Positions 2,026-20,591 of a DNA stretch of 36,282 nucleotides are shown piece by piece (positions within the stretch are counted from its first letter, which is position 1; every line of letters begins with the position of its first letter). This DNA comes from a virus. A program made the position numbers and the translations under genes. Under the pieces are notes generated by a model that ran no database searches, had not been told where the DNA came from, and saw only the letters and a list, made by a program, of their open reading frames with translations. Location of the stretch: positions 1 to 36,282 of IMG/VR virus record IMGVR_UViG_3300027619_000002, one strand, 5' to 3'.

Positions 2026-3318
2026 TTAGGAGTTCAGAGTGACGACAACGTTACGACCTGGTGCTTCGGTGTAAAGCTGTAGGTCCCCGACGATTCGGCC
2101 TTCGAATGCATCCGCATCCACTTCGCGAAGGATTTCATTACCATCCTCTGAATCGAAGTAGGGAGCATCACCCATGGTCCCGAAGGTCCATGTATCCATA
2201 TCCAATAGCATTGGATAGCCGTCTGGGGTGTTAATATCAAAGAAAGCCTTGATAGGTCCCATGCTGCCCATAAACTCAATGCCGTTGAATGTGACGCCGC
2301 TTGCATATTTGTTGATTGGCGCAGCGGGTTCTTTCACATTTCGAAGTGAACCGGATGACTCTAGCTCATATTGAAGGTTGAGGTAGTCGTTTGGTGATAG
2401 GAAGTAGTGAGTTCCATGACCATCAGCTTCTGCAATAACCTTCGCGGCCTTCATTGCAGCAGCCTTGGGTGAAATACCCTTTCCTGAAACGCGCCACCCA
2501 GATAGCCACTGCACATCTTGTGTTCGATCAAGACCGAACCAAGGCGTTGAAGTGGGCGCTGAGGTTGGGATCCAGCCTTGGAGACCAGAAACCACTTGGT
2601 TGTAATCGCCGTCAAAGTAGAGATAATCGGTCGAACCAAATGTTGGGCAAGATGTTGCTACTGGAACGTTGAAAGTGAGGATTGCATTATCACGGTCGAG
2701 GCTCGTGACGAGCAGTGGAACAACCTGGGTCCGTTGTGAAGATGCCCCAGTGTTGTCTGCTGAGAACCCGACGTTTAGGTTCTTCTGGAACTTCTTCATA
2801 TCAGCTACGTTGGTTAGCTGAATCTGACTCGTGGTCAGAACTTGTGTTGAGCCAGAGGGAACTGAGAGTGTGGCGGTCCCACCAGGAGCAGTAAGGATCT
2901 GGCCAACTGAACCAACCCCAGAGCCCCAGAGATAGATCCCCTGGCGACGCTTCCAGACGTTGAGCGCCATTTTGACTTGGCGTTCGAGAGCCGGCAGAAT
3001 TGCGGCTTTCTTATTCTGGGCCCGGCGGAGAAGCTGGCGTTGAATTGAGAACAGAGAGTAGTAGATTACGGGTGTAATGTCAAACTTAGACTCAACCGAA
3101 GGCGACTTGTTTCGCTTGGCGTTTGAGAACTGAGCTGACGCACCACCAGTGTAACCATAGCCAACTGCAATATGGCGGATTATTTCGTGGAATGTGGTAT
3201 CCTTAGCCACTTGGCCGTAAAACGATTGGTTGATGGTGTACAATTCATCATAAATGTCAGTCTGCGGCCAGATTTCCCGGAGTAACGCAGAGTAAGAGGT
3301 GGATGATGCAGCAGTCAT
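2026..3318 (-). CDS. Major capsid protein (430 aa)
   Basis: Gene order is TerL, portal, scaffold, then this ORF. The size is typical of HK97-fold or P22-type coat proteins. No sequence search was possible. Confidence 0.7.
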   Translation of the reverse strand: MTAASSTSYSALLREIWPQTDIYDELYTINQSFYGQVAKDTTFHEIIRHIAVGYGYTGGASAQFSNAKRNKSPSVESKFDITPVIYYSLFSIQRQLLRRAQNKKAAILPALERQVKMALNVWKRRQGIYLWGSGVGSVGQILTAPGGTATLSVPSGSTQVLTTSQIQLTNVADMKKFQKNLNVGFSADNTGASSQRTQVVPLLVTSLDRDNAILTFNVPVATSCPTFGSTDYLYFDGDYNQVVSGLQGWIPTSAPTSTPWFGLDRTQDVQWLSGWRVSGKGISPKAAAMKAAKVIAEADGHGTHYFLSPNDYLNLQYELESSGSLRNVKEPAAPINKYASGVTFNGIEFMGSMGPIKAFFDINTPDGYPMLLDMDTWTFGTMGDAPYFDSEDGNEILREVDADAFEGRIVGDLQLYTEAPGRNVVVTLNS

Positions 3319-3472
3319 TGTGATGTACTCAAAAGATCAGAAACTCCAACCCGCATGGATTCTGGCGCGAGCGAATTAACTTGATCCGAGTTGATGCTTT
3401 TTAGTGTGACGGCATCAGTCACATGACCTAAGATCTGATAAGGTCTAACCTTATTCAATTCAATAAAGAGCT

Positions 3473-5120: not shown

Positions 5121-6167
5121 TTAGCTAGCTTTCCTAGCAGCCTCCATTGTCAAAGCCACTCGTTCTTTGTGAGTTAGTGGCTTTGCGGCGGCCCCATTAG
5201 TCTTTGCTGGTACTACTACCTTCTTTGGATCAACTTTGGCCACAACCTTGGTTTTATCCTCAGTTGTAGTTGCAGCCGCTTTCTTTGCAGGTAGTCCACG
5301 TGCGACTAGACGTTTGTAACGCTCATCTTCCTGAGCCCATTCATCTACGGCATCTGCTACAGCTTCCAAATCAAAATCACCATTTGGCTTTCGTGGCGTC
5401 TTACCTAAAGCATTTAATTTGTTACAAATGTCATCAGCAACTTTCCGTGCTTCGGCCCTCGAATAAATTAGACTCGAAGCCTCATATTTTTCATCTTGCA
5501 TCAGTTTATCAAAATTGATGTATATGGCTTCTGTTGCCTGTGTGGCCTCTCGCGCTTCACGATCCTTTTTTACAGCCGCCGCTACATCAGCTTCCGTAAG
5601 TGGTTTGGCATCTGTCGTAGTCCCAGTCTGTTGACGTTGCCATTGATTCTTCGCGTATTTCTTGAAATCTTCTTCCGTCTTTAGACCTAGATGATCGAAT
5701 CCATACTCGAAAAACTTAGTTGGATCATTGAAAAGGGCTTCTAGTTCTTTGACTCTTGCCTCAGCCTTTGACTGACGATCCTTCGCTTCATTGAGCATCG
5801 TCTCTGCTGCTTGTTTTTCAGTTGCGACTTTTGACTCTAACTGGCGTAGTTCAGTCTTTTGACGAGCTAAAGCTGCAAATGCCTTGGCATCAGCCTTTTC
5901 AGTCTCAGATTTCGGTTTCTCAGCGGATACCTTTTCTGGCGTTTTGGCTGGGGTTTCCTGTGTTTCAGAAGTATCCGCGGCTACCTCAGCCTCTAAGGCC
6001 GCCTTTGCCTCGGCTTCGCCTTCGGCCATAAGTCGAGAATGGAGATCCGCTTTTCTAGCTTGATGCGAAATAAACTTACCCGATTCATCCCGAGCAACTG
6101 CTGTTTCTGTTACTGGGGTCTCCGCGGTTTCGACCGCTACTTCTGGAACTATTACTTCGTTTGCCAT
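5121..6167 (-). CDS. Scaffolding protein (348 aa)
   Basis: Lies between the portal and capsid genes. Strongly Ala/Glu/Lys-rich with coiled-coil character (AEGEAEAKAALEAEVAAD, KTELRQLESKVATEKQAAE), typical of phage scaffolds. Confidence 0.65.
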   Translation of the reverse strand: MANEVIVPEVAVETAETPVTETAVARDESGKFISHQARKADLHSRLMAEGEAEAKAALEAEVAADTSETQETPAKTPEKVSAEKPKSETEKADAKAFAALARQKTELRQLESKVATEKQAAETMLNEAKDRQSKAEARVKELEALFNDPTKFFEYGFDHLGLKTEEDFKKYAKNQWQRQQTGTTTDAKPLTEADVAAAVKKDREAREATQATEAIYINFDKLMQDEKYEASSLIYSRAEARKVADDICNKLNALGKTPRKPNGDFDLEAVADAVDEWAQEDERYKRLVARGLPAKKAAATTTEDKTKVVAKVDPKKVVVPAKTNGAAAKPLTHKERVALTMEAARKAS

Positions 6168-6176
6168 TTGATTACT

Positions 6177-8204
6177 TTACGAGACCCCAGGTGTTGGGGC
6201 CGCTCCTTGTGGTTGAACATTAGCTGGTGCTGGATTCAATGCTCCGCCAGGCCCAGCTTGTGGTGATGGATTTACGCCTGATTGAGTTGGTGCTGCCATG
6301 GTCTTTGAAAGTTCGAACTTAGCGTCTTCAATATAACGACGTAAAAGACCTAGGATCGAATCTGGTACCCCAGTCATGAGACCCATGCATATTTGTTGTT
6401 GTGCTCGACGCATTGCATAAACAAGGTCTTGGTAAGCCTCGGGGCGTCTGTAGGATCCCTTTTTATTAACTTCATTTTCATCAAGATCCAGCATATGCTC
6501 AATTTGTTCATCTGCGAGCATAGTCATTGCTGATTCGAGGTCAACCTCGGCATCAATGTCCGGGGCATCTAAAAGCCGCAGATACATTGTGCGATCAATT
6601 AATCCACCATTGTAAAGATCACTGACAGACTGTCGTCTAGCAGCCGGAGTCCGACCTAACAACGCCGTTGGCCAGATCTGGATCTGAATTGCATCAGCGT
6701 CCATGTCAACATCTTCCCATTTAACTTCGAGAAGTTGACGTTTTTGGGATACGAATACAGCTAAATCAGGGTTTTCCTCATGCATTTCTTTGAACTCTTC
6801 GATGAAGCGTTCGGCGATCTGAACATGGAGGTCTTCATAAGCCTGTTCGAAAACAGCAAAATTATCATTTTCCAAATCGGCTAGAGTATTCAAGGCCACA
6901 GCAGCCGTGATACCAGATGGTTTTTCGGCATTGGCGCTCATCTGAGAGACGCCAATCCATTTCATCGAATCATTAGCGCATTGCTGTTGATAGCTATAAG
7001 TTTGAGCGTTAGCCGGCTCTGGTGATTGATATGTGGGTTCAAATCCCGGCTTATATTTGAGCAAATACCCCACTTCATTTACGAAGTGAGAATCAATCAT
7101 ATCACCACCGTCAGGAACTTTCCAAATACCTGTTCCAACCATTCGATGGGCCATTCTCAGAGTTTCAGTTACATAATTGCATTCCTCCTGAAATCCAGAC
7201 ATTTCTGCTGCCAAACCATCAGGCCAATAGCCAATCATGGGTTTGGTATATCCAAGCATAACTAGAGGGAAATGGTCTTTGTTATATTCGCCTTGATCTA
7301 AGAGACCACCATCTACCCCAACATAGAACTTCCCAGGTTTACCCCCACAAGGAAGACGCCAACAACGTGTAACTAACACACGATCCACGCCCTGTTCATA
7401 ATCGGGCATATCATCAATTAATCCAGATGTGCTACCAGAATGTTCTATTATAGTTGGTCGGTCTTCTCCCAATTCATTTGCACCAGGATAGTGACTTTCA
7501 AGATCAACTCTGTCTTCCCACCTCACCATCCACAATTGAGTTGGGTCACCATTATGAGCGTCCCCAATATCAACAAAAACTTCCCAAGCTAAAACTCGTT
7601 CACATCGTGGAAGTTTGTCACCAGGATAATGATGGATCCATTGGAGACCAGGACCAAGTGCTAAACAATCCCGTGCTTGCCAGGGGGTTTTAGCAAATAC
7701 ATCACAAGCGTTGAAAGCACCTTCAAGGAAATAACTTAGTGAACGGGCTCTCTTTGTTAATTTATAGTTTCCACGTGACGTGAGAACCATTGGTAATGGT
7801 TTATGTCGTCCAACTTTAGCTGTAACAGTGTTGACGCCTCGTCTTACTAAGTTATATGGGAGACTGGGAGCAACGAATCCAATAGACGCAGCTTCATAAT
7901 TTGTTAGACCCAGGCCTGTAAACTCATTAACACCATATAATTGTAGATAATATCTATACATCTCTCGTCGTGCACGTTGACGGTTTCGCAAGCGCGAAAC
8001 ACGTGACATGACTAAATTGTGAATGTCATCTGCCGAAGCTAAATACCAACGGAGATCTTGACCTAGTGGGTGAAAATCCGGTCCTGTGTTAAACTTCCCA
8101 GTGTCCGGTTTTTCGGTCTCCGGGTTATCTTTCTTTATCTTGTTCTTGCGTTTGGCGCGCATTTCCTGCGCTTTTGCCATCGCCTGGCTATCTTTTGAAC
8201 TCAT
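6177..8204 (-). CDS. Portal protein (675 aa)
   Basis: Large ORF between the TerL and scaffold genes with a typical portal size. It has a Pro/Gly/Ala-rich C-terminal tail. Called on synteny. Confidence 0.75.
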   Translation of the reverse strand: MSSKDSQAMAKAQEMRAKRKNKIKKDNPETEKPDTGKFNTGPDFHPLGQDLRWYLASADDIHNLVMSRVSRLRNRQRARREMYRYYLQLYGVNEFTGLGLTNYEAASIGFVAPSLPYNLVRRGVNTVTAKVGRHKPLPMVLTSRGNYKLTKRARSLSYFLEGAFNACDVFAKTPWQARDCLALGPGLQWIHHYPGDKLPRCERVLAWEVFVDIGDAHNGDPTQLWMVRWEDRVDLESHYPGANELGEDRPTIIEHSGSTSGLIDDMPDYEQGVDRVLVTRCWRLPCGGKPGKFYVGVDGGLLDQGEYNKDHFPLVMLGYTKPMIGYWPDGLAAEMSGFQEECNYVTETLRMAHRMVGTGIWKVPDGGDMIDSHFVNEVGYLLKYKPGFEPTYQSPEPANAQTYSYQQQCANDSMKWIGVSQMSANAEKPSGITAAVALNTLADLENDNFAVFEQAYEDLHVQIAERFIEEFKEMHEENPDLAVFVSQKRQLLEVKWEDVDMDADAIQIQIWPTALLGRTPAARRQSVSDLYNGGLIDRTMYLRLLDAPDIDAEVDLESAMTMLADEQIEHMLDLDENEVNKKGSYRRPEAYQDLVYAMRRAQQQICMGLMTGVPDSILGLLRRYIEDAKFELSKTMAAPTQSGVNPSPQAGPGGALNPAPANVQPQGAAPTPGVS

Positions 8205-8577: not shown

Positions 8578-8772
8578 CTAACAATCCAGAACATATTTGA
8601 TTATGCAATTAGGGTCTAGACAGTCTTCTTGCTCAATTTGATGTTCACAAAATCCACACATCATTCGTTTGTATTCAGTTTCATTAATTAATCCACAATT
8701 CAGCCATTCTTGGAGGATTGTGATTTGGGCTGATGGCGACAGCACCTTGTTGAAGAAGAGTTGTGTTTTCAT
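8578..8772 (-). CDS. Small Cys protein, member of the C-terminal VL-tail family (64 aa)
   Basis: Ends ...CGFCEHQIEQEDCLDPNCIIKYVLDC-stop (CxxC-x9-C-x3-C). Its ATG overlaps the TerL stop (ATGA). Confidence 0.6.
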   Translation of the reverse strand: MKTQLFFNKVLSPSAQITILQEWLNCGLINETEYKRMMCGFCEHQIEQEDCLDPNCIIKYVLDC

Positions 8773-10433
8773 CTTGATCTATCTCCGGGGGTCCAATTTT
8801 GCCTTAGGGATTGGTCATTTCGCAATTGGGCTTGGCGACGACGCTCTTGTGCTTCTTTGACTTCAATCGCATCCGCTTCCGGGGTTCCAACTTTAGGTTT
8901 TGGAGCCAATACCAATTGTCCAGATTGTTGGAAGATAGAAAGAACAAACGCTGATACTATATCACCATGCTCCCCGGTTGGCCATTTTTGCAAAATGATT
9001 GTTATATTCCCACCCGAGTTTTTCCTCCAAGTGACTTCTTTTAACTGACGCAGTAATCGTGGATGATTTGGTATTTTGACCAACCCTTCCCTCATCAGGG
9101 TCCGAGTTTTGATGAATGATTCAGCAGGCGACATTGGGGCATCTACGAATCCTAGATTTAGCTTGCCAATTACCTCTATTGCAGTTTGTTTATAATGCTG
9201 GTCGGCCATAAAATAACTTCCGCCGTGACGGCGTATTTCTTCACCAAACTCACGACAAACTTCACTAGGCTGTAATGCTGCACCTTCTTGCGGTTTCTTC
9301 TCTATAATCTGGGCGACTCTGATAATCCCTTGTTTTAGATGCGAAACCACCAACGCACTGCTATTCTTGGTAAACCCGAGGTCAATACCCGCCATAACCC
9401 TGTCACCCGGTTCGGGGAGGGTTGGAAATTGATAGGTCGAATCAACACTCTTAGATAATACGATCGGGTCAAAGAAAGACTCAGTTCCAGCGCCCATGAA
9501 CTGGGCGCCGTATTCTCGTCGGGCATTTTCTGAATCCTGCTGATATTGTTGTTCAACCACTTGTCGTAAAATCGGACTATCTCTGAAAACCAGAGTGGGG
9601 CTGTGCATTGCGAGACATGTAGTCCCAAGCTTAAGGGTTGGAGGCAACCCGGCACATTCCGGATTCGGATGACACTGTGAAAAGAAATCGTATAACAACC
9701 CCGTTTGAGCCCAGGGTGTAGATACGATGATAATCTGAGATCCAGGAAGAACAGCGCGAATAGTAATAGCATCAAATTGTTCCTGATCATTTACAACACT
9801 TCCGGCATCTCTGAAAAATGCCGTCTCTTCTAAAGCTGCTCCAACTAAGTTCGAACCTCGTCCCGTTCGTCCCTTTCCCGACGCGGCTCTAACAACGATT
9901 TCGACAGATTTACCATCTCTAGCAAACTCAATTGATTCAGCTGCATCAGCTTTCCCGACCACCATCTTCAAAAGTTCAGGATGATTTCTGACTGCACCTT
10001 GGATAAATCTAAGTGGTTTACAAGCCTGATCCATATCTGGCGCTATGATTGGTGCTGAGGCTACTTCACCAGGTGCCAAATCGTCTAAAGGAACAGTAAG
10101 TGCCAGATGCAGGATCCGTAGGGCAATTAATACGTATGTCTTACCAGCTCTAGCTCCGGCCACAGCAACGAATACGCGACGCTGTTCATCAGTAATAGAC
10201 TCAATATCACCAAACAATTTGCGAGCTAATTCCCGATCGGACCCTCTCAAATCTTCGGGTTGAACGCCATCGTATGCGATTGCACATGCAACCAGTTGCG
10301 CACGACTTAATTTAACACCTATTTGGTCACAAAACTCTAGGAAACTCTCAGCAACCTTGAACTTCGATTTGGTATCAAACTTCAATCCACCAAGAAGATA
10401 ATCATTCGGGTCAGCTTTTTTCTTATTTGACAC
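8769..10433 (-). CDS. terL: Terminase large subunit (554 aa, GTG start)
   Basis: Walker A is VAVAGARAGKT. RNase-H-like nuclease acidic motifs are present: AGIDLGF, FMADQHY and EHGDIVSAF. It lies immediately upstream of the portal module. Confidence 0.85.
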   Translation of the reverse strand: MSNKKKADPNDYLLGGLKFDTKSKFKVAESFLEFCDQIGVKLSRAQLVACAIAYDGVQPEDLRGSDRELARKLFGDIESITDEQRRVFVAVAGARAGKTYVLIALRILHLALTVPLDDLAPGEVASAPIIAPDMDQACKPLRFIQGAVRNHPELLKMVVGKADAAESIEFARDGKSVEIVVRAASGKGRTGRGSNLVGAALEETAFFRDAGSVVNDQEQFDAITIRAVLPGSQIIIVSTPWAQTGLLYDFFSQCHPNPECAGLPPTLKLGTTCLAMHSPTLVFRDSPILRQVVEQQYQQDSENARREYGAQFMGAGTESFFDPIVLSKSVDSTYQFPTLPEPGDRVMAGIDLGFTKNSSALVVSHLKQGIIRVAQIIEKKPQEGAALQPSEVCREFGEEIRRHGGSYFMADQHYKQTAIEVIGKLNLGFVDAPMSPAESFIKTRTLMREGLVKIPNHPRLLRQLKEVTWRKNSGGNITIILQKWPTGEHGDIVSAFVLSIFQQSGQLVLAPKPKVGTPEADAIEVKEAQERRRQAQLRNDQSLRQNWTPGDRSR

Positions 10434-14341: not shown

Positions 14342-14546
14342 CTAATACCGCCTGACACAGACGTTCTCTGGCCTGTTCACAAATTATGTCGGCCATCACT
14401 TGTGATGGATACCAGCCGAAGACGCTGGTAGCTCGCTTTATCTGGCAAAAATGACATTGCCATTCGAACTTATGGTTATCAAAGTCGTTATGCGATCTTG
14501 ACCAGCAATGCCCCCCTTTGCCGAAAATGGCCTCATGTCCAATCAT
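14334..14546 (-). CDS. Small Cys/His protein, loose member of the VL-tail family (70 aa)
   Basis: HCWSRSH...CHFC...ICEQARERLCQAVLDE-stop. Overlaps the GNAT start by 8 nt. Confidence 0.55.
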   Translation of the reverse strand: MIGHEAIFGKGGHCWSRSHNDFDNHKFEWQCHFCQIKRATSVFGWYPSQVMADIICEQARERLCQAVLDE

Positions 14547-14995
14547 TCGTCCACCTCTGTCACTTCGCTAATTTCCTCAGGAGGAGGCGCCGAGAGAAGT
14601 TTTCGCTTCTCTTCTTCACACTTGGCTTCCAATTCATTAATCCGGGTGAGTTTCTCACTGCTGGTGAGTTTCTCCCACTCCTCGCGGGGACCTTGATTTA
14701 ATTGCAGCTTGGTTGTATCCGACCAACGTCCTGACGCTCTGCGTTGCAGCCACCAGGCAGAACACACCCAATTCTTAATTGAGTGCTTCTTGATGTTCTT
14801 GACGTGATATGCCTCAGCTTTCATTTCAGCATCAATAACATCCGCCTCGAACTTGGGATCTTGCAACCGCCATAAACGAAATGTGGACTCATTGATCCCA
14901 GCATCAGCAGCGGCAATCTTCCGATAATTACCTGCAATTAGCGATGCGAGTAGCGCTTTCTTGATAGCATCTGGATTTGAGTGTGGTTTGCCCAT
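14543..14995 (-). CDS. Helix-turn-helix DNA-binding protein resembling small terminase subunits (150 aa)
   Basis: IAGNYRKIAAADAGINESTFRLWRLQDPKFEADV (HTH) followed by NWVCSAWWLQRRASGRW. This resembles the HTH plus W..LERR pattern seen in many proteins annotated as TerS. Recognised by eye only. Confidence 0.4.
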   Translation of the reverse strand: MGKPHSNPDAIKKALLASLIAGNYRKIAAADAGINESTFRLWRLQDPKFEADVIDAEMKAEAYHVKNIKKHSIKNWVCSAWWLQRRASGRWSDTTKLQLNQGPREEWEKLTSSEKLTRINELEAKCEEEKRKLLSAPPPEEISEVTEVDE

Positions 14996-15192
14996 TACTC
15001 ATCCAACACGTGAGCGACAACACAATCTGGGTGATCACACTCTGCTCTTTTCACCATTTGAGAATGATGCTTAAAGCAATAAACGGTCGTTCCCATTATC
15101 TTACCCCAAAGGCTACCTGAATATAATTGTGCTTGAATGTCACTTTGTGGCCATAATTCCTGCAATACACTCGAAAAATCCGTAGGCTTCAT
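14995..15192 (-). CDS. Small fusion protein: capsid-protein N-arm-like segment plus VL-tail Cys module (65 aa from ATG 15192)
   Basis: MKPTDFSSVLQELWPQSDIQAQLYSGSLWGKIMGTTV aligns with capsid residues 9..45, SYSALLREIWPQTDIYDELYTINQSFYGQVAKDTTF. Ends RAECDHPDCVVAHVLDE-stop. The ATG overlaps the upstream stop (ATGA). Confidence 0.6.
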   Translation of the reverse strand: MKPTDFSSVLQELWPQSDIQAQLYSGSLWGKIMGTTVYCFKHHSQMVKRAECDHPDCVVAHVLDE

Positions 15193-15374
15193 TGATTCAA
15201 CACGTATGCACAAACGCATTCCGGATTTGTGCATTGGGAAATAGGTCTGTACATGGATCTTCCTTCCTCTTCATGATAACACCAATTCATATCAGAATAA
15301 TCCTCCCATCTAATCTTGAATACACCACCTAGCTTACCTGTGCCATCCCGTAACCAGTCATATAGATCGGACAT
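15189..15374 (-). CDS. Small Cys protein, VL-tail family (61 aa)
   Basis: Ends ...WCYHEEEGRSMYRPISQCTNPECVCAYVLNQ-stop. Confidence 0.6.
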   Translation of the reverse strand: MSDLYDWLRDGTGKLGGVFKIRWEDYSDMNWCYHEEEGRSMYRPISQCTNPECVCAYVLNQ

Positions 15375-16156: not shown

Positions 16157-16450
16157 TCACTTCTTCTGTTTTGCTGCCCATTGACGCTGCAATTTTTCTT
16201 CTTCTACAGCAAGCCAAATATGATATGGAGTTTGAAAGGCAATAACTGCTTGTCTTGCAACCTTGTGGGCAGCCAGCACTTCTTTGATTAAATTGCCTGT
16301 GGCTTGATGCATTGCTAGTGTAGATACATCTTCATCGTGAGCAGCTCTCATTGCTAACTTCAATTTTTTAAAGTCATACGTTATACCTTTATGAGTCCAC
16401 ATATCAGGCAACATTTCCGGCCTAACTTGCACTGAATTAGGGTCTCTCAT
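16157..16450 (-). CDS. Hypothetical protein (97 aa from ATG 16450; the ORF track uses TTG 16462)
   Basis: Helical and charged. One of the first genes of the leftward unit. Confidence 0.5.
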   Translation of the reverse strand: MRDPNSVQVRPEMLPDMWTHKGITYDFKKLKLAMRAAHDEDVSTLAMHQATGNLIKEVLAAHKVARQAVIAFQTPYHIWLAVEEEKLQRQWAAKQKK

Positions 16451-16595
16451 CCGAAACTTCAACCATCCTACGACAATCTAAGCACAAATGCCTGATTGCT
16501 TCAATTAATTCCTCGTAATGATCCTCTTCCGTAATGAAGTTTCTCTCACATTGTGCACAAGAGTAATACCAGGTCGGTCTAACTTCACTGTTCAT
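16437..16595 (-). CDS. Small zinc-ribbon protein (52 aa from ATG 16595)
   Basis: MNSEVRPTWYYSCAQCERNF...RHLCLDCRRMVEVSDERP has a CxxC-x23-CxxC arrangement. The ORF-track extension up to 16844 translates the GGGGAC repeat array into low-complexity sequence and is rejected. No clear SD is present. Confidence 0.45.
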   Translation of the reverse strand: MNSEVRPTWYYSCAQCERNFITEEDHYEELIEAIRHLCLDCRRMVEVSDERP

Positions 16596-16626
16596 ATCGG
16601 ACTTTACATTTGAAGATGTTCGTTCT

Positions 16627-16739
16627 GGGGACGGATACCTTAAGATCCCTCGTCCCTCAGTCCCCCGTCCCCTTTTTAAGTTTGGGGACCGGGGACCGGA
16701 CTGATCCCGGGATCCGGGACTGAGTGGGGACTCGGGGAT
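16627..16739. promoter_or_regulatory. Dyad-symmetric array of GGGGAC-type hexamers (candidate operator or iteron array) with a central 12-bp palindrome
   Basis: GGGGAC or GGGAC on the plus strand at 16627, 16684, 16691, 16716 and 16726, plus GGGGAT at 16734 and GGAC at 16698. The complement GTCCC(C) occurs at 16652, 16660 and 16667. Spacing is 7-10 bp. GATCCCGGGATC is a palindrome at 16703..16714. The region is non-coding and lies between divergent gene blocks. Confidence 0.55.
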
Positions 16740-16740
16740 G

Positions 16741-16842
16741 GCAGATTTGATCGTAGAAAATGAGAACACCCACAAATATATGAAATGTATAGTATTATAA
16801 GCCTTCGATGGTTTATTAGGTACAGTAGAAATAGAGGAACTC
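16741..16842. promoter_or_regulatory. AT-rich divergent promoter region (candidate -10 boxes on both strands)
   Basis: A perfect TATAAT lies on the minus strand at 16799..16794 and overlaps TATTAT on the plus strand at 16793..16798. GAGGA at 16834..16838 is the RBS for the ATG at 16843. No convincing -35 elements were seen. Confidence 0.4.
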
Positions 16843-17004
16843 ATGAGTGGTCTATCAAAAAGTCGTCCAGTATTGATCCAATTTCCTGCAAGTAAACAGG
16901 AAAAATCAGATGCTCAGAAACTTGCAAAATCACAAGATATTCCTCTTTCACAACTTATTCGCCGCCTCTTAAAGGAAGAACAAGACAGGGTCACGTCACC
17001 TTAA
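16843..17004 (+). CDS. Ribbon-helix-helix (Arc/CopG-like) DNA-binding protein (53 aa), below the ORF-track size cutoff
   Basis: Manual translation: MSGLSKSRPVLIQFPASKQEKSDAQKLAKSQDIPLSQLIRRLLKEEQDRVTSP. The beta-strand (VLIQFP) followed by two helices is the RHH pattern. GAGGA RBS lies 4 nt upstream. Confidence 0.6.
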   Translation: MSGLSKSRPVLIQFPASKQEKSDAQKLAKSQDIPLSQLIRRLLKEEQDRVTSP

Positions 17005-17011
17005 ATACGTT

Positions 17012-17051
17012 TCAGCCACACTCCCGGGGTCTAATCGGAGAGTGTGGCTGA
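17012..17051 (+). promoter_or_regulatory. Perfect 11-12 bp inverted repeat (stem-loop) between the RHH and helicase genes
   Basis: CAGCCACACTC (17013..17023) pairs with GAGTGTGGCTG (17040..17050), with a 16-nt loop and a flanking T/A pair. No T-run follows it. Confidence 0.5.
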
Positions 17052-17104
17052 GGAAAGAAAAGTTCCATGGAAAAAGTACATTCGAAGTCCAACAAGGTGT
17101 CCAC

Positions 17105-18658
17105 ATGAATAATCTTATTCGTGGACTATTCCAATATGGCTCGGAAGGACCCGAGGCCTCCGAGTGCATGAATAATTGGATTCAACTACAACGTTCGAAC
17201 GTTGAATTCACTGATCAGTTTGATCAGCAGATAATTGACCAAATAAGCCAATGGAACTGGCTTACAACCAAATATTCAGGGGGTGGGGATCGTGAGCAGG
17301 TAATAGATGCTCCATCCTTTGACACCTTGCACAGTTGGTTGGAAAGCCTTAATCAAATAGAGGCATCCAGTCGTTTAGACGAAATAAAAGGATTGCACCC
17401 AAAGATTCGAACTAATTACCAATCATTCATTGTCGCTCGGCAAGACGAACAAAAACTATCAGCCTTTACAAAATTAAATAACACCTGCAACCATATTGCT
17501 GCTCACGGATTAGTTATAACGACCACTAGCCCAACTGGTAAGAAAATAACACGACACTGGAAAGGCATAGCCGACTCAGACGAATATCGTCAACTAATGT
17601 CTGGAAATCTCCACGAATCGGATGATTTCCAAATGAATAATTTGTCCAGTCTTTTAGCATCGCCGGACCAACCATGCAAATATGTGATTCCTCAATTTCG
17701 ATTCGCTGAGGGGCGCCCAAATATGATCATTGCATGGGCAGGTCTGTCAAAGACGTTCCTCATGCTAGATCTCGCTTTATCTGTTGGAGCCGGCCTGCCA
17801 ACTTGTTGGGGTGATGTTGGGGTGATGTTAAAGGGGAAGGTGGCAATATTAGATTATGAAATGGGGATCAAAATCACCAAACGGAGACTTCGACGACTAG
17901 CTTTCGGTCGAGGGATCACTAATTTTGACAACATTGATGTGGTGAGCTTCTCTCCTGTTAGCTTGACTAGCAAAGCCGCGGAGTCTAAGTTCATGCGGCT
18001 TTGCGATGGGCGTGCTCTCTGTGTTATTGATTCGTTTCGAGCGGCAACACCATCCTCGAAGGATGAAAACTCGTCCGAAATGGCCGAATACCTGGTCATG
18101 TTGTCTAAGGTAAGCGACAAAACTGGTTGCATATTTGTGATCCTCCATCATGAGAGAAAAACTCAGGAACTCACGGCTGCCGAAGAATTATCACATGATT
18201 TCACTCAGGACGCTCGTGGGTCATCAGCATTAATGGCGGCGCTTGGTGCAACAATTAGCATCAGACGCGTTAAAGGGTCTGACGATTTCAAAATCTCCCA
18301 GGGCAAAGTATCTATGGGCAGACGTGGTGATAGTGTCCTGTTTCGTTTGGAGGATACGGGGAATACTGTGCCAGATTTTGAGGATCATGAGGGATTAGTA
18401 ATCAAGACGATTAATCCGGGAGATGAGACTGACAATGCTGCCAAAAAGGAACGTGATTTAATCTATCAGACTATTGAAAACTATGGTCCAAAGAGCTTGT
18501 CGGTCTTGCGAGAAATGCTCCGTAAGCAAAATTGGAAGGGAAGGAATGGGGCCGAAAAGAAAGTCCTTGACCAGTTAATAGAAGATGGAGTCGTAATACG
18601 ATCACCAACTGGCGGTTATGTAACGTCTGCCACTGCAACATTTTATGGTGTTATATGA
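17105..18658 (+). CDS. RepA/AAA_25-type RecA-fold replicative helicase or ATPase (517 aa from ATG 17105)
   Basis: Walker A-like IIAWAGLSKTFLMLDLALSVGAG, Walker B ALCVIDSF, and FVILHHERK (the HH..K motif typical of RepA/AAA_25 proteins). The ORF-track GTG start at 17042 lies inside the stem-loop. ATG 17105 has AAGGTG 5 nt upstream. Confidence 0.7.
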   Translation: MNNLIRGLFQYGSEGPEASECMNNWIQLQRSNVEFTDQFDQQIIDQISQWNWLTTKYSGGGDREQVIDAPSFDTLHSWLESLNQIEASSRLDEIKGLHPKIRTNYQSFIVARQDEQKLSAFTKLNNTCNHIAAHGLVITTTSPTGKKITRHWKGIADSDEYRQLMSGNLHESDDFQMNNLSSLLASPDQPCKYVIPQFRFAEGRPNMIIAWAGLSKTFLMLDLALSVGAGLPTCWGDVGVMLKGKVAILDYEMGIKITKRRLRRLAFGRGITNFDNIDVVSFSPVSLTSKAAESKFMRLCDGRALCVIDSFRAATPSSKDENSSEMAEYLVMLSKVSDKTGCIFVILHHERKTQELTAAEELSHDFTQDARGSSALMAALGATISIRRVKGSDDFKISQGKVSMGRRGDSVLFRLEDTGNTVPDFEDHEGLVIKTINPGDETDNAAKKERDLIYQTIENYGPKSLSVLREMLRKQNWKGRNGAEKKVLDQLIEDGVVIRSPTGGYVTSATATFYGVI

Positions 18659-18981: not shown

Positions 18982-19361
18982 ATTGTAATCACCAGCCCAA
19001 CTCGAACTCTTGTATCAGTTGTCTCTCGCCAGCCTACCAAAATGCTGTTGCATCATTGCAACAGCAATCCGCCGCCTCACAGTATTGGAGCCATCAGATG
19101 ACTTTGTCAAATCATCCTCAGACAAATCAGAATCTAGTTGACCAAGCGAGACCAACACCCATTAGCCCCGGACTCGGGGAGCAGTATGACCAAGCAATTC
19201 GCCAGATCATCATCGAAGAAAACCGATTAAAATTTGTCGAGACTAGACTCGCAGAGTGTGGTCACAGTCTTGCCAAAGCTGTGAAATATGCGGATGACCT
19301 GTGGGCACAATTGGTCGCTGAGAGAGAATTGAAAATCGTTCGAGAGGTTCTAGATGAATAA
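18978..19361 (+). CDS. Hypothetical protein with a VL-tail ending (127 aa from ATG 18978)
   Basis: The ATG overlaps the upstream stop (ATGA). The N-terminus is MNCNHQPNSNSCISC. Ends ...LKIVREVLDE-stop. Confidence 0.55.
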   Translation: MNCNHQPNSNSCISCLSPAYQNAVASLQQQSAASQYWSHQMTLSNHPQTNQNLVDQARPTPISPGLGEQYDQAIRQIIIEENRLKFVETRLAECGHSLAKAVKYADDLWAQLVAERELKIVREVLDE

Positions 19362-19527
19362 CTATTGGCTCACAGATGAGTGTCCTCTCAGCCTCCAAGT
19401 AGAGATGAACAAGATCATCCAAGATATTCAATTTGCCCATCATCAATGGGACGCATGTATTCACAATAGACTTCTTGGTAAATGTGAGGACGAAGATTGC
19501 ATCGTCCAGTTCGTATTACAGGAATAA
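19354..19527 (+). CDS. Small Cys protein, VL-tail family (57 aa), below the ORF-track size cutoff
   Basis: Manual translation: MNNYWLTDECPLSLQVEMNKIIQDIQFAHHQWDACIHNRLLGKCEDEDCIVQFVLQE-stop. The ATG lies inside the last codons of the upstream ORF. It replaces the antisense ORF 19243..19464. Confidence 0.6.
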   Translation: MNNYWLTDECPLSLQVEMNKIIQDIQFAHHQWDACIHNRLLGKCEDEDCIVQFVLQE

Positions 19528-19530
19528 CTT

Positions 19531-19776
19531 ATGTTCGGACACAAGTGGGTTCAATATACTGATAATGGAGAGAAATGTGAATTGTGTGGTCTTTTGCGTA
19601 TAACCAAAACCAAAACCAAAAATCCTAATAATATATTATACGTAGATTATAGCGTATTTAATTCACCCGAATATTTATATTGGAGTTACATAGAAAATCA
19701 TTTCCTGCCATCAGATACTCAGTGCACCGAACAGCGACGTGTTGATTGGATAATCCGACAGGTCTTGGAAGAATGA
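19531..19776 (+). CDS. Small Cys protein with a VL-tail ending (81 aa)
   Basis: Contains CELCG and ends ...DTQCTEQRRVDWIIRQVLEE-stop. AGGA lies 7 nt upstream of the ATG. Confidence 0.55.
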   Translation: MFGHKWVQYTDNGEKCELCGLLRITKTKTKNPNNILYVDYSVFNSPEYLYWSYIENHFLPSDTQCTEQRRVDWIIRQVLEE

Positions 19777-19982
19777 TACATAGGTTTGGTTACCACGGTC
19801 CGTATGTTTGCGAATATGAGTACTTAGCCACTAGCCATTGTAATAAGAGAGGTCAATATTATCGGAACCGATACGGCTTAATAATAGCATTATGCCATTC
19901 TCACATGTTGGATACGATTTCCGATGGATATGTGCTTCTAACTGATGAAGAGGCGCTATGTCATCTAGTTCTTTCGAACTAA
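19773..19982 (+). CDS. Small Cys/His protein with a VL-tail ending (69 aa from ATG 19773)
   Basis: The ATG overlaps the upstream stop (ATGA). Ends ...DEEALCHLVLSN-stop. Confidence 0.5.
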   Translation: MIHRFGYHGPYVCEYEYLATSHCNKRGQYYRNRYGLIIALCHSHMLDTISDGYVLLTDEEALCHLVLSN

Positions 19983-20344
19983 TTATACCACCTCAAACGC
20001 AGTGTGGTGGCCTAGGGTATCCAGCCGGTTGTTGGGAATGTGGCGCAGTATTAGTACGCCGAGAAACTCCGGCCGCGGAGAAAGCAGCTTTTGGTGCTGC
20101 TTGCAAAACCATCGCTGATCAACTAATTGTATGCGGTAAGCACAAAACCCAAGACTCAGCCTGGAATGAGGCCAAAGCTTGGATGCGTGCTCTCAAAACT
20201 GGCGAAGAGACCGAGAGTGAGTATAAAGCTCTAGCTCTGGAAGCCAGTAAATGGTGTGAGGAGCATGATCCGGACGAAGTCCCGATGCTGCGTATTCAAG
20301 AAGATGATCCGGAAGAATACGCTCGAATCATATTGGAAGAATAG
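19958..20344 (+). CDS. Hypothetical Cys-containing acidic protein with an IL-tail ending (128 aa)
   Basis: Contains CGGLGYPAGCWECG and ends ...DPEEYARIILEE-stop. Overlaps the upstream ORF by 25 nt. Confidence 0.55.
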   Translation: MSSSSFELIIPPQTQCGGLGYPAGCWECGAVLVRRETPAAEKAAFGAACKTIADQLIVCGKHKTQDSAWNEAKAWMRALKTGEETESEYKALALEASKWCEEHDPDEVPMLRIQEDDPEEYARIILEE

Positions 20345-20357
20345 TGTAATATCAACG

Positions 20358-20591
20358 ATGACAATTGAGGAATTGATCAATCGCCACGACTGGGCGCATA
20401 GCGACGGCGATGTTATTGGTGGTTGGACCGAATATAGATGTTACCATTGTGATTTAGTCGCTTATAATCATGATGATGGTCTTCCTTTGTACATATATGA
20501 TTATGCTGATGAACCCATTGGTAGTGATGATCCAGGTTGCACTAATGAGGCAAGAGCCTTTGCTGCATGCCGAGAGGTTCTTGAATCTTAA
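20358..20591 (+). CDS. Small Cys protein with a VL-tail ending (77 aa from ATG 20358)
   Basis: Contains RCYHC and ends ...DPGCTNEARAFAACREVLES-stop. It is the last gene of the rightward block. Confidence 0.55.
   Translation: MTIEELINRHDWAHSDGDVIGGWTEYRCYHCDLVAYNHDDGLPLYIYDYADEPIGSDDPGCTNEARAFAACREVLES

Follow-up and report, generated by a model that had tools for sequence, protein, structure and literature searches.

Single proteins that serve both as replication initiator and as helicase are well studied among the enzymes with an AAA+ or superfamily 3 (SF3) motor, namely the SV40 T antigen, papillomavirus E1, the P4 alpha protein and Rep from the pathogenicity islands of Staphylococcus aureus (SaPIs). 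Helicases of the DnaB/RepA type normally rely on distinct initiator and loader proteins to be put onto DNA, and to our knowledge all studied initiator-helicases use the AAA+/SF3 motor. In the SaPIs, the Rep helicase attaches to 6-12 iterons of five or six nucleotides by means of a C-terminal winged helix, and no separate loader is known (PMC9371898). The SaPI iterons lie next to the rep gene, with at least two on each side of an AT-rich centre and in opposite orientation, and their sequence is element-specific (PMC9371898). By comparison, RepA of RSF1010 lacks a DNA-recognition domain and is loaded after RepC binds the iterons and melts oriV (PMC8965321). In pRN1, the repressor gene orf56 is co-transcribed with the multidomain orf904 (helicase plus winged helix), and an essential, lineage-variable dyad is positioned about 54 bp past the stop codon (PMC4234260). 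Here we describe an array of short repeats in a soil-metagenome phage genome of 36,282 nucleotides (IMG/VR record IMGVR_UViG_3300027619_000002; this whole stretch is referred to as the window). The array occupies a gap at the junction of the leftward- and rightward-transcribed genes, close to a gene for an AAA_25 helicase. Comparison with related loci suggests that it is probably the phage replication origin, bound by the neighbouring helicase, which is itself probably an origin-binding and self-loading enzyme.

The array is composed of copies of the pentamer GGGAC, of which there are 73 in the genome counting both strands; eight of these are within 104 bp (16628-16731), together with five one-off variants nearby (16645-16739). 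Among 200 dinucleotide-preserving shuffles the largest GGGAC cluster in a 110-bp window has four copies (mean 2.45) versus the eight observed. Significance was judged by this GGGAC-specific comparison only, any-5-mer statistics being inflated by low-complexity words. The array is the top 5-mer cluster of the real genome, and there is just a single such array. Its components are listed in Table 1. All of the repeat coordinates given in an initial annotation of this DNA, which was made without database searches, are correct (GGGGAC and GGGAC on both strands, the GGAC and GGGGAT variants, and the centre), and the perfect palindrome it reported is indeed present. Three degenerate copies can be added to its list, ATCCC at 16645-16649 and the ATCCC and GGGAT within the palindrome. 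The copies are spaced by 7, 8 and 7 bp on the left and by 7 and 7 bp on the right, and thereafter by approximately 6, 11 and 8 bp. The array also contains four GATC sites, where 0.6 are expected, and two of them are in the palindrome. Folding of the 126-nt array as a single strand is not clearly better than that of shuffled sequences (z -1.64; 14 of 200 shuffles fold as well), and we therefore claim no selected hairpin beyond the dyad itself. No Rfam family was reached, the sole match being at chance level (16.3 bits against a threshold of 80). A distant blastn search revealed no DNA relatives of the window among GenBank phages, and an IMG/VR search by protein pattern and the exact DNA of the central dyad found no relative. 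We note that a tandem TCGTCCCGT (2.2 copies) in the large terminase gene (window 9858-9877) holds two further GTCCC pentamers, 9 bp apart, which are probably there by chance.

The context for understanding the array comes from relatives of the helicase. A protein search gave helicases at 30-35% identity, whose contigs were fetched, and more distant relatives were obtained from a scan of GTDB genomes (17 loci) and a scan of metagenomes (73 loci), with 58 non-redundant loci used for counts. The 17 GTDB loci are nearly all from Myxococcota (Polyangiaceae, Sorangium and Anaeromyxobacter). Six lineages of the window's clade share the same gene layout and have a long gap with a dense short-repeat array, but with a different repeat in each lineage (Table 1); the lineage repeat units include GGGACAC, GGGAGCACG, GGCGGA, GGGTCCG, GGGAACC, GGGCAC, GTGGAC and others. 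The central element of each array consists of inverted repeat copies that surround a C-run and a G-run with a short T/A centre between them, and the GTCCCCTTTTTAAGTTTGGGGAC of the window is an exact fit to this pattern. A family core, in which a C-run is followed by TTAAG, CTAAAG, CTATAG or GTAG and then by a G-run, can be recognised in no fewer than 28 of the 39 related arrays. The common order is leftward copies, the C-run/G-run core, rightward copies, an abutting dyad (for example GGTTCCGGGAACC in L022, L025 and L026, or GTCCCGGGAC in L011) and then a run of three or four copies in direct orientation, spaced by 8-11 bp. This layout is kept among loci whose helicases are only 27-37% identical, and it is co-oriented with the helicase strand.

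The location of the array is likewise tied to the helicase gene. In the window's clade the array is 360-630 bp before the helicase start (363 bp in the window), and in most of the more distant relatives the strongest short-repeat cluster of the 4-7 kb locus is 50-130 bp past the helicase stop codon. We scored a strong cluster as a top 6-mer cluster with at least six copies per 150 bp, and a cluster as helicase-adjacent if it lay up to 300 bp beyond the helicase stop or up to 700 bp ahead of the helicase start. Strong clusters are present in 37 of the 58 loci and are helicase-adjacent in 31 of those 37 (23 downstream and 8 upstream), whereas chance placement would be expected to give a helicase-adjacent cluster in about nine of the 58. 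The suggestion of an iteron-type origin beside a replication helicase is thus strongly supported by comparison, as dozens of lineages combine the helicase gene with an array of the same layout, located on one side of it or the other and built from a repeat particular to the lineage. L005 differs in having long tandem repeats (8960-9215; units of about 22-45 bp, at least three copies each) directly left of its short-iteron array, which represent a second class of repeat.

The domain composition of the helicase is consistent with such a role. Comparison of PDB sequences with a profile built from ten family members gave a match to RepA of RSF1010 for the core (PDB 1g8y, 3.7e-17), to the N-terminal domain of DnaB for the N-terminal part (about 1e-3) and to the winged helix of RPA32 for roughly the final 80 residues (7e-3). 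The predicted winged-helix-like domain spans residues ~443-510 (nt ~18431-18634), and an AlphaFold2 model (mean predicted local distance difference test score, pLDDT, 75) has the order H-H-H-strand-strand at residues 443-507, with three helices and a wing of two strands. Seven of the ten relatives have C-terminal segments that match winged-helix or helix-turn-helix Pfam families, all below threshold. The catalytic motifs are invariant (the Walker A Lys, DYE, the Walker B Asp, HH and RGSS) and the C-terminus is highly variable. Iteron types group with C-terminal subfamilies; for example, GACGnGAAT is found in L018, L020, L038, L039 and L047, and an GGGAACCGAT iteron in L022, L024, L025 and L028. 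In partial Mantel-type comparisons of 33 modules, iteron similarity is related to C-terminal similarity when the ATPase core is controlled for (rho 0.17, permutation p 0.0075), but not to core similarity when the C-terminus is controlled for (rho -0.03, p 0.59); this apparent covariation is supportive but weak. The helicase N-terminal domain had been put forward initially as a binder of the repeats, but it resembles the N-terminal domain of DnaB, and the C-terminal winged-helix-like domain is the more likely binder of the array.

A plausible mechanism is one in which the C-terminal winged helix of the helicase binds the iterons (core GGGAC), and the two opposed groups of iterons around the C-run/A-T/G-run centre would position two helicase rings facing opposite ways. 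Opening of the DNA would then begin in the A/T centre, the AT-rich tract on the right perhaps opening as well, and the DnaB-like N-terminal domain would recruit the host primase and replisome. Such recruitment fits with the gene content, as no primase or polymerase was recognised among the window proteins and the AAA_25 helicase is the sole replication or replisome gene that could be recognised; no integrase was found either. The additional direct iterons, which are on the side of the helicase, could be added binding sites or provide copy control. The ribbon-helix-helix (RHH) protein encoded between the array and the helicase is most likely a repressor of the operon that it forms with the helicase, acting at another site closer to its own start codon (candidate GGTTTATTAGG), as do CopG of pMV158 and ORF56 of pRN1. 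We also propose, although here the balance tips slightly towards doubt, that these loci constitute an undescribed family of origin-specific, self-loading helicase-initiators built on a RecA-fold (SF4, RepA/DnaB-like) motor. Members would have a two-part origin with a shared core and iterons co-diversifying with the C-terminal winged helix, would be distributed among soil phages and Myxococcota prophages, and would replicate using one protein and the host replisome. We found no description of this helicase family or of its arrays or origin in the literature, although the library searched is incomplete.

Several observations weigh against the array being an origin read by the helicase. The A/T centre is just 11 bp in the window and 4-6 bp in the GC-rich relatives, far shorter than in SaPI origins, and 21 of the 58 related loci lack a strong cluster, albeit with a crude detector. 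The winged-helix assignment comes from sub-threshold matches and one moderate-confidence model (pLDDT approximately 70-79 in the domain). The covariation signal is small, and iterons and C-terminal domain could both simply evolve fast and share recent ancestry. The RHH gene of the window directly adjoins the array, and the 7-bp spacing also fits RHH heptad operators. Finally, an unrecognised initiator could be encoded among the many unannotated small open reading frames (ORFs).

CopG (pMV158) and omega (pSM19035) illustrate how a small RHH gene can head a replication operon, with omega binding 7-bp direct or inverted repeats. The initial annotation raised the possibility that the repeats are operators with which the RHH protein controls divergent promoters; by analogy, the 53-aa protein could bind them cooperatively at 7-bp spacing. 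The start of the RHH-like gene is 104 bp rightward of the array, which separates divergent transcription units and has a 7-bp spacing and mixed orientation resembling the omega heptads, and RHH genes are in the same position in L002, L005, L011 and L014. However, the array layout is kept in L009 and L013, in which the small gene codes for a winged-helix protein, and in L010, which has no small gene and whose flanking genes are co-directional. L033 has an RHH gene directly upstream of the helicase but its array is downstream, 1.8 kb from the RHH promoter, and in the 23 loci with an array past the helicase stop the gene that follows varies from locus to locus. The GGGACAC iteron is common to L010, without an RHH gene, and L011, with one; no sigma-70-type promoter is predicted over the repeats; and the separate conserved motif nearer to the start codon of the regulator is a better operator candidate. 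We therefore consider an operator role to be quite unlikely. A packaging signal, with pac or cos-like terminase sites heading the leftward operon that includes the terminase genes, is far less probable again. The small terminase gene is in that same leftward unit, and the cosB site of lambda has repeated terminase sites in both orientations, but in the relatives it is the helicase that the array accompanies, the terminase and portal genes being either missing or at a distance of 6-9 kb, and many of the arrays are in prophage-like or island contexts where they adjoin the helicase only. The array is independent of the RHH gene, the divergent promoters and the packaging and terminase genes.

A more complex case is that in which the helicase, or some other protein of the phage, binds the array as a platform that is not an origin but acts in autoregulation, in copy control by handcuffing or in transcriptional control. 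Iteron plasmids do have extra iterons that serve control, and both the linkage to the helicase and the covariation point to a cognate protein-DNA pair and not to initiation itself. Against this, there is one such array only in the genome, no other candidate origin was seen there, and the head-to-head arrangement around an A/T centre is that reported to be conserved in studied helicase-initiator origins (PMC9371898), such that we regard a purely regulatory platform as unlikely. The initial annotation also drew attention to G-quadruplex patterns on both strands, and these could in principle act in replication pausing or priming or in transcription regulation. The pattern (G3+N1-7 x4) is confirmed at 16709 on the plus strand, as the sole plus-strand match in the genome, and at 16647 on the minus strand; the other minus-strand matches are all in the G-rich coding strand of the collagen-repeat gene, and shuffles average 0.5 such loci. 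However, the pattern arises automatically from four GGG-containing repeats at 7-8 bp spacing, it is present on both strands in only two of 39 homologous arrays, on either strand in ten and on neither in 29, and the iterons of many lineages cannot form a G-quadruplex (GGAACC, GTGGAC, ATAGCA). A functional G-quadruplex element is thus very improbable, and the motifs appear from these comparisons to be a by-product of the G-rich repeats.

The AT-rich segment to the right of the repeats is real but not extreme, ranking fourth in the genome for low stability among non-overlapping 60-bp windows. The RHH-helicase operon probably has its promoter and leader here, and the segment may possibly serve in unwinding too. 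It does not seem to be a required unwinding element, since the next gene in high-GC relatives begins about 40-80 bp past the last repeat. The TATAAT reported on the minus strand is present (ATTATA, 16794-16799), but a sigma-70 scan finds no -35/-10 pair in the gap and, across 16300-17300, no consensus promoter other than one inside the helicase gene, with the caveat that this consensus may not be that of the host; a scan for intrinsic terminators found none in the gap. GC skew turns near 16.7 kb, as had been anticipated for an origin, but it tracks the coding strand across the whole genome and was rejected as independent evidence. The description of the gap as the longest in the genome is roughly right, in that the public gene calls leave a 393-bp uncalled stretch that is the longest in the 21.5 kb fetched. 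The difference arises from a 52-aa ORF bounding the gap on its left (Table 1), whose status as a gene is doubtful; should it be spurious, the gap would reach 16463. Nothing points to translation of the long ORF that crosses the repeats (16437..16844), which is uncalled on the public contig and whose equivalent DNA in relatives is non-coding.

The rightward unit begins with the RHH-like gene, followed by a hairpin, a 13-codon leader ORF and the helicase gene, which starts at 17105 and not at 17042. The RHH-like protein is probably a CopG-like repressor of its own operon. A CCTTTTATAGG-like motif, found by eye 25-45 nt upstream of the start codon of the small regulator in the window's clade (GGTTTATTAGG in the window), is on sequence grounds a candidate promoter element or RHH operator, separate from the iterons. 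Hairpins of other sequence are at the same place before the helicase in L002 (8437-8468), L005 (9944-9985), L011 (5877-5903), L010 (5790-5820) and L014 (3735-3770), including L010 in spite of its lack of an RHH gene, and they could be attenuators, RNA-processing sites or priming sites. The overlap of leader ORF and helicase gene is also seen in L002 (8490-8531) and L011 (17 codons, TGATG), and in L009 a peptide similar to the leader (MSNVHSSPING...) is fused in frame to the helicase N-terminus. The recurrence of the overlap and the in-frame fusion suggest that helicase synthesis is translationally coupled to the leader ORF.

Elsewhere in the genome, recognised genes include those for endonuclease VII, a GIY-YIG nuclease and an SU10-type adaptor, in addition to the terminase genes and a collagen-repeat protein that is probably a fibre. 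At least seven small Cys-rich ORFs flank the array on both sides and have a common C-terminal motif, C-x4-5-V/I-L-x-E/Q (for example ...DCVVAHVLDE, ...ECVCAYVLNQ and ...DCIVQFVLQE); they have no match in Pfam or PHROG, and look like a paralogous family. Throughout the region fetched, the window and ENA contig ERR1700735...k127_84556 (36,530 bp) have the same sequence, and by coordinate arithmetic (L001 mapping) that contig corresponds to the window plus a 248-bp terminal overlap at window ~6303-6550. This overlap, derived from the coordinates of the two, implies that the assembly is circular or terminally redundant, with its ends away from the repeat array. The window is 46% G+C, compared to 64-73% for the genome-borne Myxococcota helicase loci (L016-L032), and the host of this phage may therefore differ from the Myxococcota hosts of the relatives.

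Table 1. Coordinates of the array and other features of the window, with corresponding elements of related loci (positions refer to the window unless a locus is named).
Feature	Position	Strand	Description
Outlying iteron GGGGAC	16627-16632	+	Left of main dyad
Dyad 1, left arm	16645-16672	-	ATCCC 16645-16649 (degenerate), GTCCC 16652, GTCCCC 16660, GTCCCC 16667; counterpart arm in relatives
A/T centre	16673-16683		TTTTTAAGTTT, all A/T, 11 bp, between C-run and G-run
Dyad 1, right arm	16684-16701	+	GGGGAC 16684, GGGGAC 16691, GGAC 16698; 92% complementary to 16660-16672
Dyad 2	16703-16714		Perfect palindrome GATCCCGGGATC, two abutting inverted degenerate iterons (ATCCC/GGGAT)
Direct iterons	16716-16739	+	GGGAC 16716, GGGGAC 16726, GGGGAT 16734, pointing toward helicase; core spacing 11 and 8 bp
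L011 array			Repeat GGGACAC (16 GGGAC cores); central element GTGTCCCTTCATGAAAAAGGGACAC
L010 array			Repeat GGGACAC / CGGACAC; central element GTGTCCCCCCTAGGGGGGGGGACAC
L009 array			Repeat GGGAGCACG; central element GCTCCCCCTAAGGGGGGGAGC
L002 array			Repeat GGCGGA; central element TGCCCCCCTTAAGGGGGCA
L005 array			Repeat GGGTCCG; central element GTCCCTCCCCTTTTCAAGGGGAC
AT-rich segment	16740-16842		66% A+T; includes GGTTTATTAGG 16810-16820 and ribosome-binding site AGAGGAA 16833-16839
CCTTTTATAGG-like motif	16810-16820; L002 ~8135-8147; L005 ~9593-9606; L009 ~3338-3350; L011 ~5561-5575; L013 ~92-104; L033 ~2658-2672		Inverted in L033
RHH-like protein, 53 aa	16843-17004	+	Sub-threshold Pfam matches, all to RHH families: DUF6290 0.007, NikA-like 0.024, CopG_antitoxin 0.077
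Hairpin TCAGCCACACTC...GAGTGTGGCTGA	17012-17051		Perfect 12-bp stem, 16-nt loop, no T-run; just past RHH stop codon
Leader ORF MEKVHSKSNKVST, 13 codons	17067-17108	+	Own ribosome-binding site GAGGA 17050-17054; TGA overlaps helicase ATG (ATGA)
Helicase, 517 aa	17105-18658	+	Pfam AAA_25 3.3e-20; DnaB-like N-terminal domain, RecA-fold core, C-terminal winged-helix-like domain
52-aa CxxC...CxxC ORF	16437-16595	-	Possible zinc ribbon, zf_Tbcl 0.006 (sub-threshold); left bound of gap; not called on public contig
Small terminase	14543-14995	-	Recognised gene; 1.6 kb left of array, same leftward unit
Large terminase	8769-10433	-	Recognised gene
Collagen-repeat protein (probable fibre), 1472 aa	20814-25232	-	Pfam Collagen 2.6e-84; weak BclA_C-like region
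Small Cys-rich ORFs	14995-15234, 15189-15374	-	
Small Cys-rich ORFs	19354-19527, 19531-19776, 19746-19982, 19958-20344, 20256-20591	+	
Small Cys-rich ORF of L010	L010 5166-5387		

If the array is an origin that is read by a RecA-fold helicase, then this would represent a second, independent solution to a problem that the AAA+/SF3 proteins also solve, and would explain how replication starts in a 36-kb phage without a recognisable primase or polymerase. The combination of helicase and array would also provide a rule for locating origins in uncultivated phages and myxobacterial prophages, and dozens of natural specificity variants with which to study protein-DNA recognition. The modules are candidate minimal replicons for Myxococcota, where plasmid tools are few. 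The feature defines a testable family of origin-reading RecA-fold helicases, and the origin idea is open to testing since one cultured strain, Sorangium sp. So ce315, has a copy (locus L021; NZ_CP150328.1, about 7.993-7.996 Mb).

RSF1010 (IncQ) is the sole well-studied relative of the helicase motor, its RepA being homologous to the core, and its oriV also has iterons and an AT-rich region. RSF1010 has its own primase RepB', single-strand initiation (ssi) hairpins and 20-bp direct-repeat iterons, whereas the repeats in the window are 5-7 bp and in both orientations, and no counterpart of RepC or RepB' was recognised among its genes; the window system as a whole is thus unlike that of its relative. 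The pRN1 plasmid is similar in having an operon of a small regulator and a replication protein, and a dyad element after the gene, as in most of the helicase relatives, but ORF904 combines a primase-polymerase (prim-pol) with an SF3 helicase, the pRN1 element is a 100-nt stem-loop and not a set of iterons, and the host is archaeal. The array also differs from the RHH operators in that it does not co-occur with the RHH gene across relatives.

The P4 alpha protein (acting at ori and crr) and the polyomavirus large T antigen combine initiator and helicase in one SF3 polypeptide. Their repeats, TGTTCACC octamers in P4 and GAGGC pentamers in SV40, occur in either orientation, those of SV40 being arranged as a dyad beside an AT tract; there is no sequence relationship to the window system, and the layout and spacing of the repeats differ. 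The closest functional match is with SaPI Rep and its origin. As in the SaPIs, the window has between six and twelve short iterons (eight exact GGGAC plus the five variants), of which three or four point leftward and three rightward on the two sides of the A/T centre, and the array adjoins the helicase gene, travels with it (31 of the 37 strong clusters) and has lineage-specific iterons. Unlike the SaPIs, in which Rep is AAA+/SF3-like with a partner or fused primase and the AT-rich region is longer, the window helicase has a RecA-fold AAA_25 core and a DnaB-like N-terminus with no primase found, its 11-bp A/T centre is flanked by C and G runs, and its proposed origin precedes the helicase gene, from which a small regulator gene separates it; there is no sequence homology. 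Because the core is of the RecA-fold AAA_25 type and no primase was detected, the window system is not a SaPI member by descent, but it is one that would work in the manner of the SaPI/P4/T-antigen class.

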